Made by a program: the position numbers and the translations under genes. A stretch of DNA of 64,000 nucleotides from an uncultured Planctomycetota bacterium (GTDB lineage: Bacteria > Planctomycetota > PLA2 > JAEUHO01), in contig CAVVXN010000005.1 in assembly GCA_963752285.1 (NCBI GenBank), forward strand, positions 1,120,001 to 1,184,000, read 5' to 3'. Positions 19,381-26,015 of this stretch are shown piece after piece (position 1 is the stretch's first letter; each line of letters starts with the position of its first letter). The notes beneath the pieces were generated by a model. It did not search any database. It saw only the letters and a list, made by a program, of their open reading frames with translations, and was not told the DNA's origin.

Positions 19381-20783
19381 CGAACCTCCTTCGCGAGCCA
19401 CCGGCCGTGGCGGAACCATAGCACGTAGGCCACCGCGACCGCGAGGTGCAGGAACACCGGAACGGCCCAGAAGGTCCGGAGGCCCAGCGTGTCGGCGTGC
19501 GCGGCCACCCAGCCGGCCAGGGGGTACCCGATCACCCCGTACGCGAGGGTCTCGATCACGAACGGGAACTTCGTGGCGCCGGCCCCGGCGAGCGCCTGCG
19601 ACACCACGACGGCCACCGCGAGGAAGACGTACCCCGCCGACGAGACGTAGAGGTACGTCCGACCGAGCTGGCGCACGACCTCCGTGTTGACGGTGGGCCC
19701 CACGTCGAACCCCATCAGCCGGAGCAGCGGGTCGGCGAAGAGGACGTAGGCGCCCGCGAAGAGCAGCATCATCGTCATGTTCAGGCCCAGGCTGATCCAC
19801 GTCGCCCGGACGGCGCGGTCCGGCAGGTGGCGGCCCAGGTTCTGGCCCACGAAGGTCGCCGCGGCGGCGCCCCAGCCGAAGCCGCCGAAGAGCGCGAGGC
19901 TGTCGAGGCGGAGCCCGACGCCGAACGCCGCCTGGACCTCGGTCGTGCCCAGGTGGGCGAGCGGGGCCGCGCGCGCGAGGAAGCGCAGGACGTACAAGTA
20001 CGAGAGCATCCGCACGAGCCACTGCGCGCACGACGGGACGCCGATCCGGAGGATCGACCAGACCATCGACCCGCGCCAGGCGAAGCGACGGAGCATCAGG
20101 CCCGCGAAGCCCCGGTAGAGGACGGCCACCCCCACCGCCGCGAAGAGGCCGCGCGAGATGACGGTGGCCCACGCGGCCCCGGCCACGCCCATCGGGGGGA
20201 GCCCGAGTCCGCCGAAGACGAACCAGACGTCCAGCACGATGTTCAGGACGTTGGCGGCCACGATGAGCAGCATGGGGAGCATGCTGTTCCCCGCCGCCCG
20301 CATGGCCCCGGTGACGGTCAGGAGCACGAACATCGTGCCGGTGCCCGCGCTCATGATGGCGAGGTACGCGGTCGCGGGCGCGACGACGGCGCCCTGCGCG
20401 CCGAGGTGAGAGACGATGTCGCCCGCGTAGATCCACGGCGGCACCCCGAACACCACCGACAGGAGCAGGGTCACGAGCAGCCCCTGCTCGGCGGCGAGGC
20501 TCGCGCGGCGCCGGTTGCCGAGGCCGTGGTGCCGGGCCACCAGCGCGATGATCGCGTTCACGATCCCGTTGAAGATGATCATCGGGATCGAGTTGACGAG
20601 CGACGGGATCGTCACCGCCGCGACGGCGACCTCCGGGTGCGGCAGCCGCGCCACGATGACGAGGTCGACGAGGTTGAACAGGGCGGCCAGCATCATGGCC
20701 GCCACGAGGGGGAGCCCGAACGCGAAGATGCCCCTCAAGAGCGGTGCACGCGTGATCCCGGCACCGCTCTCGAGGGGCTCCAC
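19377..20783 (-). CDS. MATE family efflux transporter
   Basis: NLVDLVIV, NIVLDVWFVFG..GVAGAAWAT, FVGQNLG; about 12 TM segments. Confidence 0.9.
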   Translation of the reverse strand: MEPLESGAGITRAPLLRGIFAFGLPLVAAMMLAALFNLVDLVIVARLPHPEVAVAAVTIPSLVNSIPMIIFNGIVNAIIALVARHHGLGNRRRASLAAEQGLLVTLLLSVVFGVPPWIYAGDIVSHLGAQGAVVAPATAYLAIMSAGTGTMFVLLTVTGAMRAAGNSMLPMLLIVAANVLNIVLDVWFVFGGLGLPPMGVAGAAWATVISRGLFAAVGVAVLYRGFAGLMLRRFAWRGSMVWSILRIGVPSCAQWLVRMLSYLYVLRFLARAAPLAHLGTTEVQAAFGVGLRLDSLALFGGFGWGAAAATFVGQNLGRHLPDRAVRATWISLGLNMTMMLLFAGAYVLFADPLLRLMGFDVGPTVNTEVVRQLGRTYLYVSSAGYVFLAVAVVVSQALAGAGATKFPFVIETLAYGVIGYPLAGWVAAHADTLGLRTFWAVPVFLHLAVAVAYVLWFRHGRWLAKEVR

Positions 20784-20807
20784 GTAGGTTCCGGTCTTCC
20801 GGTAGGG

Positions 20808-21917
20808 CTAGACGAGCGCTTCGGCCGGCTCGACGGCGAAGTCGAAGGCCTCGGCGACGCCCCGATGGGTGATCTTGCCCTTCCAGGCGTTCAGCGCGGA
20901 CTTGAGGTGCTTGTCCTCGCGGACCGCCTTCTCGGCGCCGAGGCGCGCGAGCTTGCGGACCCAGGGCAGCGTCGCGTTCGTCAGGGCGAACGTGGACGTG
21001 CGCGGCACCGCGCCCGGCATGTTCGCGACGCCGTAGTGGACGACCCCGTCCACGACGTACGTCGGCTTGTCGTGCGTGGTGGCCTTGGTGGTCTCGCAGC
21101 AGCCGCCCTGGTCCACGGCGATGTCGACGATCGCCGAGCCGTCCTTCATGTAGCGGAGATACGTGCGCGGGACGAGGATCGGGGCCCGTGCGCCCTCGAG
21201 GAGCACCGCGCCCACGACGAGGTCGGCGTACTCGATGCGCGTCCGGATGTTCGCCGGGTTGGAGAACACGGTGGCCACGTTCTTCGGCATGACGTCGTCG
21301 AGGTAGCGCAGCCGCTCGAGGTCCACGTCCATGATCGTGACCGACGCGCCGAGGCCGGCGGCCATCTTGGCCGCGTTCGTGCCCACGACGCCACCGCCCA
21401 GGATCAGGACGTTCGCGGGCTCGACGCCGGGGACGCCGCCGAGGAGCACGCCGCGCCCGCCGTGTTCGCGCTCGAGGCACGACGCGCCGACCTGGATCGC
21501 CATCCGGCCCGCGACCTCGCTCATCGGCGTCAGGAGCGGCAGGCGGCCGTTCACCTCGAGCGTCTCGTAGGTGAAGCACGCGGACCCGGCCTTCAGCATC
21601 GCCTCGGTCAGCTCGCGCGCGGCCGCGAAGTGGAAGTACGTGAAGATCGTGAGGTCCGAGCGGGCCCAGCCGAACTCCGGCGGCAGCGGCTCCTTGACCT
21701 TGACGATCATCTGGGCCTTCGCCCAGACGTCCGCGGCCTTGTCGATCAGCGTGGCTCCCGCCTGGGTGTACTCCTCGTCGGAGATCCCGCTCCCGAGGCC
21801 CGCGCCGCGCTCGATCATGACCTCGTGACCGTCCTGGACGAGCGACTGGACGCCGCCCGGAACGATGGCGACTCGACCCTCGAGCGCCTTGATCTCCTTC
21901 GGAACGCCGATCCGCAT
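20808..21917 (-). CDS. ald: alanine dehydrogenase
   Basis: [48 protein letters not shown]. Confidence 0.96.
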
Positions 21918-22104
21918 GACTACCTCCAAGCGGCGCCTGGTCCGGCGGCGCCTTGTACGAAGTCCCGGGAGTATAGGGCGTTCGAGGTTTCCGGTCGCGC
22001 CCGGGAGGCGGTGCCCGACGGGACGCCGGGCCGGGTCCGACGCGGTCGCCACCCGGCTTCGGTCCCGGCCGGGGGCCCCGATCGTTCGGCTGCGAATGGA
22101 CCGT

Positions 22105-22839
22105 TCACCGCGGGGGAAAGCCCATGCCCGGATAGCCCCCCAGCGTCTTCGCGATCTTCTCGGCATCGTCGGGGGTGACGCCCCGGATGCGGCTCACCGT
22201 GGCCTGGAAGTCGGCATGGCTCTGGACGAGCACGTCCCTCCGCCTCTCGGCGTCCCACTTCTCGCGCGCCGCCTGCATCATGACGTCCCGGTTCTTCTCC
22301 CGATACGTGCGCGTCGCGGCGACCACCGCGGCCCGCGGCTCGGCGTCGAGCATCACACCGGCGCGCTCGAGCACGTTCTCGATGCTCTTCCTCTCTCTCT
22401 CTTCGCGGTCGCGCCGCGACACCTCGTCCCGCAGCGCGCGGAACCACGCGATCTCCTCGGGGTCGAACTCGTCCTTCCCTCCGGCCTCCCTCGGCTCGAC
22501 GCTCGCCGGCGTCTCGACGCCGGAGGTGCCCGCGTCGCCCGCGGACGCGTCCGGCTCCTTCGTCTCGCCGGCGCGCGACGACTCGATCTTCTCCAACCGC
22601 TCCTCGAGCCGGCGCATGCGAGCGAGGAGGGTCTCGTAGGCCTGCCCGTCGAGCGCGGCGGGCGGCCGCACGTCGGGCGAGGGCAGCGCGGGTGTCGCCG
22701 ACGGTGGGGTGGTGACGGGGATCCGGGCGCCCTCCCCCAGGGCGGGCCCGGTGACGCGGTCGGACCGCAGGAAGAGGTCGTAGGTCAGGATCCCGGCGGC
22801 CACGAGCGCTGCGGTAACGAGAACCTGGACGAGGCGCAT
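22105..22839 (-). CDS. hypothetical membrane-anchored coiled-coil protein
   Basis: N-terminal hydrophobic anchor, charged helical body, GGAGAG RBS. Confidence 0.65.
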   Translation of the reverse strand: MRLVQVLVTAALVAAGILTYDLFLRSDRVTGPALGEGARIPVTTPPSATPALPSPDVRPPAALDGQAYETLLARMRRLEERLEKIESSRAGETKEPDASAGDAGTSGVETPASVEPREAGGKDEFDPEEIAWFRALRDEVSRRDREERERKSIENVLERAGVMLDAEPRAAVVAATRTYREKNRDVMMQAAREKWDAERRRDVLVQSHADFQATVSRIRGVTPDDAEKIAKTLGGYPGMGFPPR

Positions 22840-22902
22840 CGGAGACTCTCCCGGGACCACGGGCGATCCTATCGACGCCCGCCGGCCCCCGTGCGGCGCG
22901 CA

Positions 22903-22932
22903 TTCGACGCCGGCGCCACCCCCTGGTATACC
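22903..22932 (+). promoter_or_regulatory. possible sigma70-type promoter for tRNA-Val
   Basis: TTCGAC...TGG-TATACC ending about 20 nt upstream of the tRNA; imperfect match. Confidence 0.35.
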
Positions 22933-22951
22933 CGTCGCCGCATCGACCCCG

Positions 22952-23028
22952 GGGCGTTTAGCTCAGTTGGCTAGAGCACCAGCTCGACAAGCTGGGGGTC
23001 ACTGGTTCGAGTCCAGTAACGCCCACCA
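22952..23028 (+). tRNA. tRNA-Val(GAC)
   Basis: Acceptor stem GGGCGTT/AACGCCC, D arm GCTC..GAGC, anticodon arm CCAGC-TC-GAC-AA-GCTGG, T arm ACTGG-TTCGAGT-CCAGT, encoded CCA. Confidence 0.97.
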
Positions 23029-23760
23029 CTTCTTCGGTCGGAGCTCCCAGGTCGCGCGCTTCGTCGCCCGTCGATCGGTCTTCGTCGGACTCGAACCCGC
23101 GACCCCCACGGGGTCGATCATCCTGGGGGGCCGAGCCCCCCAGACCCCCACCGGTTCGAGTCCAGTAACGCCCACCACTTCTTCGGTCGGAGCTCCCAGG
23201 TCGCGCGCTTCGTCGCCCGTCGATCGGTCTTCGTCGGACTCGAACCCGCGACCCCCACGGGGTCGATCATCCTGGGGGGCCGAGCCCTTGAGACCCCCAC
23301 CGGTTCGAGTCCAGGAACGCCCACCACTTCTTCGGTCGGAGCTCCCAGGTCGCGCGCTTCGTCGCTCGTCGATCGGTCTTCGTCGGACTCGAACCCGCGA
23401 CCCCCACGGGGTCGATCATCCTGGGGGGCCGAGCCCTTGAGACCCCCACCGGTTCGAGTCCAGGAACGCCCACCACTTCTTCGGTCGGAGCTCCCAGGTC
23501 GCGCGCTTCGTCGCCCGTCGATCGGTCTTCGTCGGACTCGAACCCGCGACCCCCACGGGGTCGATCATCCTGGGGGGCCGAGCCCTCGAGACCCCCACCG
23601 GTTCGAGTCCAGGAACGCCCACCACTTCTTCGGTCGGAGCTCTCAGGTCGCGCGCTTCGTCGCCCGTCGATCGGTCTTCGTCGGACGCGAACCCGCGACC
23701 CCCAGGGGGTCGATCATCCTGGGGGGCCGAGCCCTTGAGACCCCCACCGGTTCGCGCTCC
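23004..23760 (+). repeat. tRNA-linked tandem array: 5 x 149-bp units plus a partial sixth start
   Basis: Units start at 23004, 23153, 23302, 23451 and 23600 (partial at 23749). Each begins with the tRNA 3' 25 nt GGTTCGAGTCCAG(T/G)AACGCCCACCA; few substitutions between units. Confidence 0.97.
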
Positions 23761-23871
23761 GTAGCGCGCGCCCTGTACTCGCTCGACCCGTCGCGGTCGC
23801 AGAGCGCGCGCTCTGTCGGTCGATCGCCTGCGGTTCCTTCTCTACCCGGGCGGGCGTGTTGCCATCGAAGG

Positions 23872-24210
23872 GTGCTCGTCTCCGTCTCCGCCCTCGGCTC
23901 GGCCGCGATCGCGTACGCGACGCACGTCCTCGCCGGTTGGCCGGCGTGCGCGGTGGCCGCGGTGTTCTGCGCCGGGATGTCGGCCTTGACCTTCGTGTAC
24001 TTCGGCGTGGACAAGGCCCGGGCGCGTTCCGGCGGACGCCGCATCCGCGAGGCGGATCTCCTCGGGGCCGCGCTGCTCGGCGGCGCGTTCGGGGCGCTCC
24101 TCGGCATGCGTCGCTTCCGCCACAAGACGCGCCACCTCCGCTTCCGGATCTTCGTGCCGACGCTGCTCCTGCTGCAGGTGGCGCTCCTCGCCTACGCCGC
24201 GTCCCGGTAG
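23872..24210 (+). CDS. DUF1294-family small membrane protein
   Basis: FVYFGVDKARA....RIRE..L...LLGGAFGALLGMRRFRHKT signature; start uncertain. Confidence 0.85.
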   Translation: MLVSVSALGSAAIAYATHVLAGWPACAVAAVFCAGMSALTFVYFGVDKARARSGGRRIREADLLGAALLGGAFGALLGMRRFRHKTRHLRFRIFVPTLLLLQVALLAYAASR

Positions 24211-24288
24211 TCGTCTCCGGAAGGCGGCGCCCCGCCCTCGACCGCGGTTCCGAGCGGGGCGCGGCCGATCGCGCCGGCGAACGTGCGC

Positions 24289-25146
24289 CTACTCTCGGAG
24301 GTCGAAGACGACGTCGGAAGCGCCGCTCTCGATCGACTTCACGACGGGCACCGTGACGCGGCCCCGGGCGAACCACGCCGCCACCCGGTACGCGCCCTCC
24401 GGCAGCTCGGAGACGACGAACGATCCGTCCGCCCCGATCTTCGCGCGTCCGACCGCGAAGTGCGGGTAGGCCTCGACCGAGACCTCGACCCGCGGGAGCG
24501 ACTCCGCCGAGGCCACCAGGAGCCGGCCGCGGATCTGCCGACCCTCGGTCGCCAGAACGCGCTGCTCGTCCTCGCCCGTGCGAAGTCCGCCTCGACGAAC
24601 GGGATGGCCCTCGTCGGCGACGGCCCACACCTCGAGATCGCGATCCGACGGAAGTCGAACGAAGCGCGTCCAGCCGTCGGCGCGGATCGGCGCGTAGCGG
24701 ACCGGACGCCTTCCGTCGGGCTCCTGCCACACGAGACGCGCGTAGCGCGGCTCGCCCGGCGGCGCGACGTAGCCCTCGATTCGCAGGAAGAGCTCGGGAC
24801 CCGGGTCGAGCACGACCCGGAGATCGGCGACGCCCGCCGTGGTCTCGACCCGAACGCCCGCGGCCGAGGTCAGGTTCGCTTCGCCGGGGATCACGCGCAG
24901 CGTGAGCTTTCCCTCCGGAACGCCGTCGATCCGAAACCGCCCGTCGGGACCCGAACGCCACCACGCCACGCCGCCCGTCCGGTTCCGGTAGCCCTCGCGC
25001 GTGATCCATACGCCCGGAATCGCCCGGCCCTTGGCGTCCTGGACGACGCCGACGACGGTCGTGGCGGGACCCGCCACGACGACGCGGAAGGCGAACACGG
25101 TCGCGCACGCACATCCGACGAGAGTGAGGAGATCCCGGGCTCGCAC
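24289..25146 (-). CDS. exported protein with carboxypeptidase-regulatory-like (beta-sandwich) repeats
   Basis: GVVQDAKGRAIPGVWI..SGPDGRFRIDGVPEG and ADGSFVVSELPEGAYRV repeats; hydrophobic N-terminus; start uncertain. Confidence 0.65.
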   Translation of the reverse strand: MRARDLLTLVGCACATVFAFRVVVAGPATTVVGVVQDAKGRAIPGVWITREGYRNRTGGVAWWRSGPDGRFRIDGVPEGKLTLRVIPGEANLTSAAGVRVETTAGVADLRVVLDPGPELFLRIEGYVAPPGEPRYARLVWQEPDGRRPVRYAPIRADGWTRFVRLPSDRDLEVWAVADEGHPVRRGGLRTGEDEQRVLATEGRQIRGRLLVASAESLPRVEVSVEAYPHFAVGRAKIGADGSFVVSELPEGAYRVAAWFARGRVTVPVVKSIESGASDVVFDLRE

Positions 25147-25870: not shown

Positions 25871-26015
25871 CGCCACGAGGCCGGGTCGCAGCCGACGGGC
25901 GGGGTGCGAGGGTCCGGGGGGCCCCGGCGCGGGTGGACCGCGCGATCGCCGAGCGCGCGTCCCCGCGTGACGGCACGGCGCGCGGGCCCGCGCGACCGCG
26001 TGGCGCGCGACACAC

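Follow-up and report, generated by a model that had tools for sequence, protein, structure and literature searches.

Tandem repeats that each carry the 3′ end of a tRNA gene have been known behind tyrT of Escherichia coli since the 1970s, to our knowledge with no agreed origin or role; the original papers are reportedly those of Egan and Landy in 1978, Rossi in 1981, and Bosl and Kersten in 1991. In strain K-12, 3.14 copies of a 178-bp unit stand behind tyrV; every unit closes with the final 19 nt of tRNA-Tyr, and a full tail terminates the array as a whole. RttR as annotated (1287066-1287236), inside which tpr is located, ends exactly 178 nt past tyrV, that is, at the CCA of the first repeat, and the unit contains GGGGAAGGA, which is complementary to TCCTTCCCC in the tail of the tRNA. 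A passage of a preprint ties rtT RNA, the product of rttR, to processing of the tyrT transcript (bioRxiv 10.1101/2024.07.17.603846). For integrative elements flanked by attachment (att) sites, an article sets out the concept of cis-mobilizable elements (CIMEs) and their accretion (PMC5704250). Here we describe a tRNA-linked array in a 64-kb stretch of Planctomycetota DNA (referred to as the window; G000:C5:1120001-1184000, where G000 denotes the source genome and C its contigs): five near-identical 149-bp units follow the gene for tRNA-Val(GAC), each with the T-loop-to-CCA end of the tRNA, in a family of genomes where short gene-less modules regularly sit behind tRNA genes. With a probability of about one half, we regard the array as a gene-less trailer module or att-type scar of tRNA-Val(GAC) that was amplified locally by unequal recombination.

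The 149-bp array behind tRNA-Val(GAC)

The array is real and far beyond chance. Its tRNA, the only one found by ARAGORN in the window, is intact, and the final 25-29 nt of it form the first copy of the repeated tail. Each unit is made up of GGTTCGAGTCCAG, a T or a G, and AACGCCCACCA, together the last 25 nt of tRNA-Val, followed by a GC-rich body of 124 nt (Table 1); identity to the tRNA extends to 29 nt at the cost of one mismatch, the tRNA reading CACTGG and the units CACCGG. At offset 14, units 1 and 2 have T and units 3-5 have G. The period, the make-up of the unit and this T/G pattern had all been noticed in an initial annotation made from the letters of the window, and Tandem Repeats Finder (TRF; period 149, no indels) and the units aligned in register agree with it in these respects. 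The same annotation held that five units each re-create the tRNA 3′ end; there are indeed five units, but the real 3′ end sits in unit 1, the only one whose tail belongs to a complete tRNA, and the extra CCA-bearing tails are therefore four, not five. The T-stem is not kept in the extra tails, which have C.A and A.G mismatches.

Whole units are 95-100% identical and vary at nine positions in a consistent pattern, with private substitutions most numerous in unit 5. The boundaries of the array coincide exactly with a microhomology of 9 in 10 positions between CACTGGTTCG, within the tRNA, and CACCGGTTCG, at the right edge. The 23 nt past CACCGGTTCG bear a weak likeness to the remainder of the tRNA tail, equalled in score by 2.4% of 20,000 random 23-mers from the genome, and may be a decayed terminal copy of the tail.

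Table 1. Features of the tRNA-Val(GAC) locus, in positions of the window
Feature	Position	Strand	Basis or remark
tRNA-Val(GAC), intact, CCA encoded	22952..23028	+	ARAGORN; Rfam tRNA, 68.7 bits
149-bp tandem array, 5.07 copies	23000..23754	+	TRF: 98% matches, 0% indels, score 1433
Starts of array units	23004, 23153, 23302, 23451, 23600	+	units aligned in register
First extra tRNA tail copy (T-loop to CCA, 25 nt)	23153..23177	+	in-register units
Further extra tails, G for T at offset 14	23302-23326, 23451-23475, 23600-23624	+	in-register units
Body of unit 1, 124 nt	23029..23152	+	sequence
Other bodies	23178-23301, 23327-23450, 23476-23599, 23625-23748	+	in-register units
Inverted T-arm copy, 22 nt	23087..23108	+	recurs every 149 nt: 23236, 23385, 23534, 23683
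Predicted hairpin 1, CGACCCCC ACG GGGGTCG	23100..23116	+	RNA fold
Predicted hairpin 2, CTGGGGGGC CGA GCCCCCCAG	23123..23143	+	RNA fold
Right edge of array: CACCGGTTCG (23745-23754, 10 nt into sixth unit), then weak tail-like stretch	23745..23777	+	
Downstream DUF1294 gene	23830..24210	+	Pfam PF06961, E 2.3e-20; DNA match G001:C10:630786-631145
Upstream open reading frames	19446-22178, 22105-22860	+, -	tblastn matches in tRNA-Val loci of 11 and 3 relatives, respectively

G000 is a metagenome-assembled genome of 4.64 Mb in 5 contigs, with 73% G+C and 89% completeness. Two low-depth contigs of 151 nt from soil metagenomes, which may derive from the source sample, align to the array region, one to positions 22988-23138 and the other to 23084-23234, each with a single mismatch; the latter spans the junction of units 1 and 2. 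Public DNA runs contained small shares of the words of the locus, and the four best gave contigs that were sparse and at most 151 nt long, which is why the reads are silent on copy number; in public RNA runs the share of locus words was at most 0.04.

The open reading frames (ORFs) upstream, which keep their synteny with tRNA-Val in the family according to tblastn with composition statistics, and the DUF1294 gene downstream are colinear with the genome of a relative of the same genus, G001. An ordinary terminator hairpin follows tRNA-Val in G001 and G009, and in G001 there is nothing more. Since the spacer of G001 holds only this terminator between colinear flanks, the stretch between tRNA-Val and the DUF1294 gene is the variable part of the locus, and the array fills a variable spacer between conserved genes instead of marking the edge of a large island. 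In agreement with the initial annotation, the window contains no match to the integrase family PF00589; the nearest lies at G000:C5:1098467, about 21.5 kb before the window, and twelve matches are found elsewhere in G000, several of them adjoining tRNA genes. Further downstream, TRF finds a GC-rich tandem repeat in the window (25938-26009; 25 bp, 2.9 copies, 77% matches).

The repeated body and the tRNA-Val loci of relatives

Within each body lies an inverted copy of a tRNA T-arm. The T-loop word GGTTCGAGTCC has its exact reverse complement in GGACTCGAACC, which begins 59 nt past the CCA, and the inverted copy holds a 9-nt word, CCCGCGACC (23096-23104), starting 68 nt past the CCA (67 nt between). 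On their minus strand, the tRNA-Asp and tRNA-Arg(CCT) genes of G000 match positions 59-79 of the body at 95%, and the tRNA-Val of the window does so at 91%. Next in the body come two G/C hairpins, of which hairpin 2 is perfect, with 9 bp, in unit 1 alone, CCC being replaced by TTG or TCG in units 2-5, and the RNA folds computed for units 2-3 are no better than those of shuffled sequences (z -0.9 to -1.2). Searched with Rfam models at E<=1 (cmscan), positions 22000-25000 gave only the tRNA and a chance match to sR14, and eight related loci gave only tRNAs and sub-threshold plastid or snoRNA noise. No promoter-like site was seen at the array in a scan that is uninformative for this phylum. A coding reading was rejected: the ORFs of the array have no Pfam match, and 149 is not divisible by 3.

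All five full copies of the body in G000 lie within the array, and the body follows no other tRNA of this genome, a point that the initial annotation had proposed to check by BLASTN. A scan of genome contigs for the exact tail joined to the start of the body gave no match. A core of 27 nt, GGACTCGAACCnnnnnCCCCCAnGGGG, occurs in 2 of 401 genomes of the phylum, G000 and G018, and among metagenome contigs in two only, both G018-like and both cut at the repeat. G018, a genome of another genus, has the core at the same offset behind its tRNA-Val, in two 147-nt units that end with a full tail, and its inverted piece matches its own T-stem. Hairpin 2 with its 3′ flank ACCCCCA recurs in relatives at other sites: it follows rpsG in G011 and tRNA-Glu in G027, and stands on the opposite strand in the tRNA-Met trailer of G005. 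At the tRNA-Glu locus (L017, G027:C40) the terminator hairpin is lengthened to a long stem that pairs CCA end and trailer of the tRNA (CACCATCGACGA ... TCGTCGATGGTG), and the hairpin motif, there G6/C7, comes after this extended stem.

The tRNA-Val(GAC) locus was compared in 25 relatives of the family. Extra tails within 300 nt behind the tRNA are present in three (G015, G018 and G028), with at least three types of body; two more second tail matches, which belong to neighbouring tRNA-Val(CAC) genes, were left out. Distant partial tails of 47-51 nt in G027, G013, G019 and G014 mark ordinary islands. One type of body, designated X and found in G015, G028 and G026, contains CCAGTGACC, the exact reverse complement of the word GGTCACTGG of tRNA-Val; a scan for the X-type word returned three known metagenome-assembled genomes and one chance match in a coding region of Terriglobia. 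At tRNA genes, such arrays cause short-read assemblies to break, and an annotator may take their tail copies for the boundaries of islands.

Gene-less modules behind other tRNA genes

In this Planctomycetota family, short gene-less modules regularly sit behind tRNA genes, often in tandem. They share a layout: a word complementary to the variable loop and T-stem of the tRNA, hairpins, and a second copy of the stretch from T-arm to CCA. Within G000, TRF finds 77 non-overlapping arrays with a period of at least 40 and a score of at least 100, a minisatellite load that is unusually high; in many of them the period is no multiple of 3 and the identity is 94-99%, for example in one of 97 bp in 8 copies at C5:236596-237372. 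Three of the 77 start in or abut the 3′ end of a tRNA gene (Val, Met, Ser) where 0.04 would be expected, and none of 5000 random placements reaches three, this null being drawn over the whole genome, so that one limited to intergenic DNA would be less extreme.

The array at tRNA-Met (C5:243255-243331, minus strand) consists of 3.2 copies of 180 bp (C5:242715-243286, L062) with four tails of 32 nt, the tRNA's own and three copies, and it ends in a full tail; a fifth tail lies at +2000 (C5:241238), past a Metallophos gene. The first body is unlike the other two over its first ~40-60 nt, and the body includes CCAACGACCCCACGC, which is reverse-complementary to the variable-loop/T-stem region of its tRNA. 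Behind tRNA-Pro(CGG), tails are found at +194, +638 and +1082, and behind tRNA-Pro(GGG), on another contig, at +427; the two share a body (93.7% identity over 714 nt) and the tRNA's 3′ end, and their upstream flanks are unrelated beyond ~40 nt. The 444-bp form of the tRNA-Pro unit corresponds to the 194-bp form with an insert of ~250 nt in the loop of hairpin P3; part of this insert (G000:C5:2006396-2006522) belongs to a dispersed repeat family found in at least 20 other places at 80-94% identity. The tRNA-Gly(CCC) locus (G000:C1:509-64613) is an ordinary hotspot of tandem islands with integrases: its five downstream tails are 3-30 kb apart with tyrosine-recombinase genes between them, and two more orphan tails of this tRNA lie near contig ends (C2:8995 and C3:15167). 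At tRNA-Ser the array simply duplicates the trailer and has no tail. It lies directly behind tRNA-Ser(GCT) (C1:97520-97720) as 2 copies of 101 bp and contains CGACTCCCGACCCGGATTTTCG; inverted copies of a near-identical motif, CGACTCCCGACCCAGATTTTCG, stand on either side of a Y1_Tnp gene 6 kb away (C1:102600-104900) that resembles REP-associated tyrosine transposases (RAYTs; REP, repetitive extragenic palindrome).

The body behind tRNA-Pro gave partial BLAST matches behind other tRNAs in G009 and G027. A covariance model of this scaffold, R1, was built from five copies and has 91 positions with hairpins P1-P3; it matches in 18 of 61 genomes searched, namely G000 and 17 of 28 family genomes, and in none of 32 genomes outside the family. 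Across 31 locus sources it gives 43 matches. Those of G000 are located at C5:2005980-2007287 and C4:53368-54046 (L063, L064, L087), those of relatives at L075-L115. Neither the window (E<=0.01) nor the tRNA-Met array of G000 contains a match, and the scaffold corresponds to no Rfam family. Pairing is found in 93.4% of the cells of the R1 alignment, as against 72.9% after shuffling and 44-53% in slid controls, the alignment scored being one fitted to the model and leaning towards that structure; 22 of the 28 base pairs change on both sides. For 35 of the 43 matches there is an upstream tRNA on the same strand, either Pro (CGG, GGG or TGG), initiator-like Met, Ala, Arg(ACG) or Asp, and the distance from it to the first unit is 9-145 nt, in most cases 45-126 nt. 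Most first units have the tRNA copied from T-stem/T-loop to acceptor 41-56 nt after the scaffold; in some the distance is 93-110 nt, or 284 nt with a dispersed repeat inserted. Units are in tandem in G001, G015, G007, G009, G020 and G027; at the initiator-like tRNA-Met of G001, three copies of 222 bp, each ordered as tail, terminator, word, scaffold and linker, amount to three bodies and three tails with no terminal tail.

Model positions 4-12 of R1 may be called an address word, as they are the reverse complement of the last four variable-loop bases and the 5′ strand of the T-stem of the tRNA. Compared with the upstream tRNA (n=35; nine target words), the word agrees at 9/9 positions in 25 cases, at 8/9 in 6, at 7/9 in 3 and at 4/9 in 1, and none of 204 non-cognate word/tRNA pairs agrees at 9/9; these matches are not independent, because many copies are tandem or orthologous, and of the distinct word/tRNA pairs 8 of 16 are perfect. 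In some copies, in G001 and at the tRNA-Met locus of G009, the address word is the last part of an inverted T-arm copy that is longer, 19-23 nt. The G/A tract that follows the word mirrors P3's purine strand (alignment A3, columns 13-30 versus 104-118). Read antiparallel, with G matched to G and A to A or T, the mirror is perfect in 12 of 18 informative tract pairs, compared to 3 of 18 in the parallel reading and 41 of 290 non-cognate combinations. A mirror pattern of this kind is that of an intramolecular triple helix of the purine motif; such helices are known for DNA, with poor support for RNA, and we infer that the purine tracts of R1 have the pattern such a helix would be expected to leave.

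One locus of G015 (G015:C7:1877700-1880574; L090, L124) combines a module with cargo: 51 nt behind tRNA-Arg(ACG) there is a perfect word and the start of a scaffold, then a 2.3-kb insert with an HTH_3 gene, and after it two complete tail-bearing modules and a third that is cut. A 13-nt direct repeat, AACCGGGTTGGAG, is present at both ends of the insert; as it flanks the cargo inside a module, modules can be insertion sites. Literature searches on tyrT, integration sites, accretion and tRNA-trailing repeats yielded no description of the scaffold, which is not proof of absence, and R1 apparently represents an undescribed family of structured elements trailing tRNA genes.

The Val array resembles this scaffold in having an inverted T-arm word, G/C hairpins, a T-arm-to-CCA tail and tandem repetition, and also in the position of the word, 68 nt past the CCA in the Val array and mostly 45-126 nt in R1. 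The Val body differs in lacking hairpin P2, in a word that fits tRNA-Val at only 7/9 positions, and in having its G6/C6 hairpin and ACCCCCA in J-P3 order on the opposite strand. A reading of the minus strand of the body as a P2-less module with a decayed tail of Asp/Arg type is only suggested, by R1 matches of 7.7-8.8 bits and by the orientation of the motif in G005, and is not established.

Origin of the array and described systems

Local amplification of a trailer module or att-type scar would have proceeded in two stages, and most likely did so in a lineage in which gene-less tRNA-trailing modules are a standing feature. A duplication of the tRNA tail would have come first and given the order tRNA-body-tail, either because a module was inserted or because recombination took place at the T-arm, in the way that an element docks on a tRNA gene; five units would then have resulted from unequal exchange, at the beginning between the tails of 25-29 nt and later between whole 149-bp units. 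Homogenisation would spare the edges of an array, which would account for the greatest divergence being found in unit 5 and the terminal tail. The initial annotation had considered serial integration or amplification of a mini-element. This reading is in keeping with the repeats at tRNA-Met and tRNA-Pro, the mini-units of relatives and the islands at tRNA-Gly; unequal recombination is, however, a simpler account of the near-identical units than five separate integrations.

Several observations speak against such a history. A full terminal tail is lacking, 10 nt being clear and the remainder weak (p about 0.024), and a plain duplication seeded by CACTGGTTCG/CACCGGTTCG would look the same; the number of five units is that of the assembly. 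No full-length match to the body was found in 60 relatives, nor in 401 genomes of the phylum and a metagenome scan beyond G018-like contigs, and the searches revealed neither an integrase nor a relic gene nor any larger relative of the body. The initial annotation had named a unique, untranscribed and unconserved body as a finding that would count against it: the body is unique and without a full-length counterpart in relatives, but its 27-nt core recurs at the same offset in G018. With filters off, R1 reaches at most 5.8 bits on the plus strand of the array and at most 8.8 bits on the minus strand, neither being significant, and the tie of the Val array to canonical modules is therefore one of layout alone. 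CCCGCGACC fits the tRNA-Val of the window at 7/9 positions and is identical to the word of fMet/Asp type. The predicted RNA fold of unit 1 is more stable than those of shuffled sequences (z -3.4 to -4.1), and no terminator-like site separates tRNA and array in a scan that is uninformative for this phylum; a function of the array units as RNA is possible.

The last two points lead to an explanation modelled on RttR and akin to the second reading of the initial annotation, a co-transcript processed at each CCA, in which tRNA-Val would be co-transcribed with the repeats and the transcript cut or trimmed at each CCA, giving functional structured RNAs of about 149 nt. The tyrV locus has the same anatomy, with RttR ending at the CCA of the first repeat and a tRNA-complementary word in the unit, and by this analogy the Val units could be its counterparts. 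We consider this unlikely, as it sits poorly with an Rfam search that finds only the tRNA at E<=1, with units 2-3 that fold like shuffled sequences, with the T-stem mismatches of the extra tails and the degraded hairpin 2 of units 2-5, with a body that lacks a full-length match even in the same genus, and with public RNA runs that carry at most 0.04 of the locus words. It is distinctly unlikely that the units arose by serial integration, that is, from a 149-bp minicircle with nothing but attP which entered the att site at the T-loop repeatedly by means of an integrase encoded elsewhere. Were it so, n events should leave n+1 full tails, while the last one here consists of 10 nt and a weak remnant; substitutions are shared blockwise, T/G at offset 14 and TTG/TCG being examples, which is what unequal exchange predicts; the Val body is present at no other locus; and a circle of 149 bp is very small for recombination. 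What such integration can call upon is the block of 25-29 identical nt, which spans T-stem/T-loop to CCA, reportedly a known class of tRNA att sites (according to Williams in 2002), together with the twelve PF00589 matches elsewhere in G000, the one gene-less body behind two tRNA-Pro genes, and the cargo of G015 between 13-nt direct repeats inside a module.

Chance tandem duplication would dispense with modules and integration altogether: slippage at CACTGGTTCG/CACCGGTTCG, which are 149 nt apart, would have copied the native trailer with the tRNA tail as a passenger. The exact bounding of the array by these two 10-mers at 5.07 copies agrees with it, as do the 77 long-period arrays of a genome that tolerates or generates duplications and the plain trailer duplication without tail at tRNA-Ser, yet arrays start at tRNA 3′ ends far more often than expected (3 versus 0.04), similar mini-units stand behind tRNA-Val in three other genomes, and an inverted T-arm is unexpected in a native trailer. 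Moreover, a full tail of 32 nt closes the tRNA-Met array, which therefore needed an earlier duplication of the tail; altogether, we hold a chance duplication to be very unlikely. That the assembler inflated the copy number is hardly credible, even for a metagenome-assembled genome in 5 contigs whose five copies rest on assembly: the units vary at nine positions in a consistent pattern, an independent 151-nt contig spans the junction of units 1 and 2 with one mismatch, and where relatives have similar arrays, short-read assembly breaks the contigs and does not invent repeats.

Within the amplification reading, the Val body looks like module debris or an amplified private variant. It suggests debris because the inverted T-arm fits tRNA-Asp, tRNA-Arg and fMet better than tRNA-Val and because hairpin 2 occurs in other contexts; it does not look like a tuned member of the scaffold family, since R1 has no match, the word fits at 7/9 and the orientation of the hairpin is reversed. 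It is possible, if doubtful, that the array represents, in degenerate and amplified form, a class of tRNA-addressed modules of this Planctomycetota family that is so far undescribed and characterized by an address word, covarying hairpins, a mirror G/A tract and a spare piece from T-arm and acceptor to CCA. If this is true, the mirror G/A triplex would point to folded single-stranded DNA, and the modules could be docking or recombination sites for tRNA genes addressed by nucleic acid (compare the cargo of G015); alternatively, the spare 3′ part could act in trans by pairing with a damaged tRNA. The address word covaries with the adjacent tRNA over nine targets and is accompanied by purine tracts that covary as mirror images; if targeting guided by base pairs or a natural DNA triplex should prove true, this would be a new principle for the use of tRNA genes by mobile DNA or by cells.

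Among described repeats, a CRISPR (clustered regularly interspaced short palindromic repeats) array was ruled out; there are no unique spacers, because whole 149-bp units are 95-100% identical. REPs and the mosaic elements composed of them (BIMEs, bacterial interspersed mosaic elements) are likewise GC-rich extragenic hairpins. GTAG is a hallmark of REPs; the R1 scaffold contains two units of GTAG plus hairpin, and G000 has a Y1_Tnp gene. The Val body, in contrast, belongs to a single locus without dispersed copies, and only its hairpin 2 recurs in relatives. A link to RAYTs was rejected: Y1_Tnp is present in 14 of 29 family genomes and modules in 18 of 29, the two do not track each other, and the Y1_Tnp gene of G000 is flanked by a different inverted motif.

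In CIMEs, too, direct repeats of a tRNA 3′ end bound gene-less DNA behind a regenerated tRNA, may be in tandem, and have real islands as company in G000. The Val units differ in being only 149 bp long and near-identical, without a relic gene or a full displaced fragment at the end: judged as attL/attR copies, the internal tails are perfect, and the terminal one is 10 nt plus the weak remnant (p about 0.024). Descent of the Val body from an integrase-bearing element is unsupported, the body being unique and PF00589 absent from the window.

A close counterpart is the tyrT-tyrV locus of E. coli, to which the initial annotation had pointed and which, now that the anatomy of tyrV has been checked, turns out to have the same layout. 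The two arrays share no sequence similarity, nor does the Val array resemble Rfam RtT; the E. coli tail has 19 nt and is full at the end of the array, whereas the Val tail has 25-29 nt and only 10 nt are clear at the end; and the E. coli locus includes an annotated small RNA as well as the small ORF tpr, where the Val array is known from sequence alone. Common to both are tandem units directly behind a tRNA, each with the 3′ end of that tRNA and CCA, a unit length of 150-180 bp, 3-5 copies, and a word complementary to part of the tRNA. The layout thus recurs in a phylum distant from E. coli as a second, independent and multi-locus case of tail-bearing repeats, which provides comparative material.

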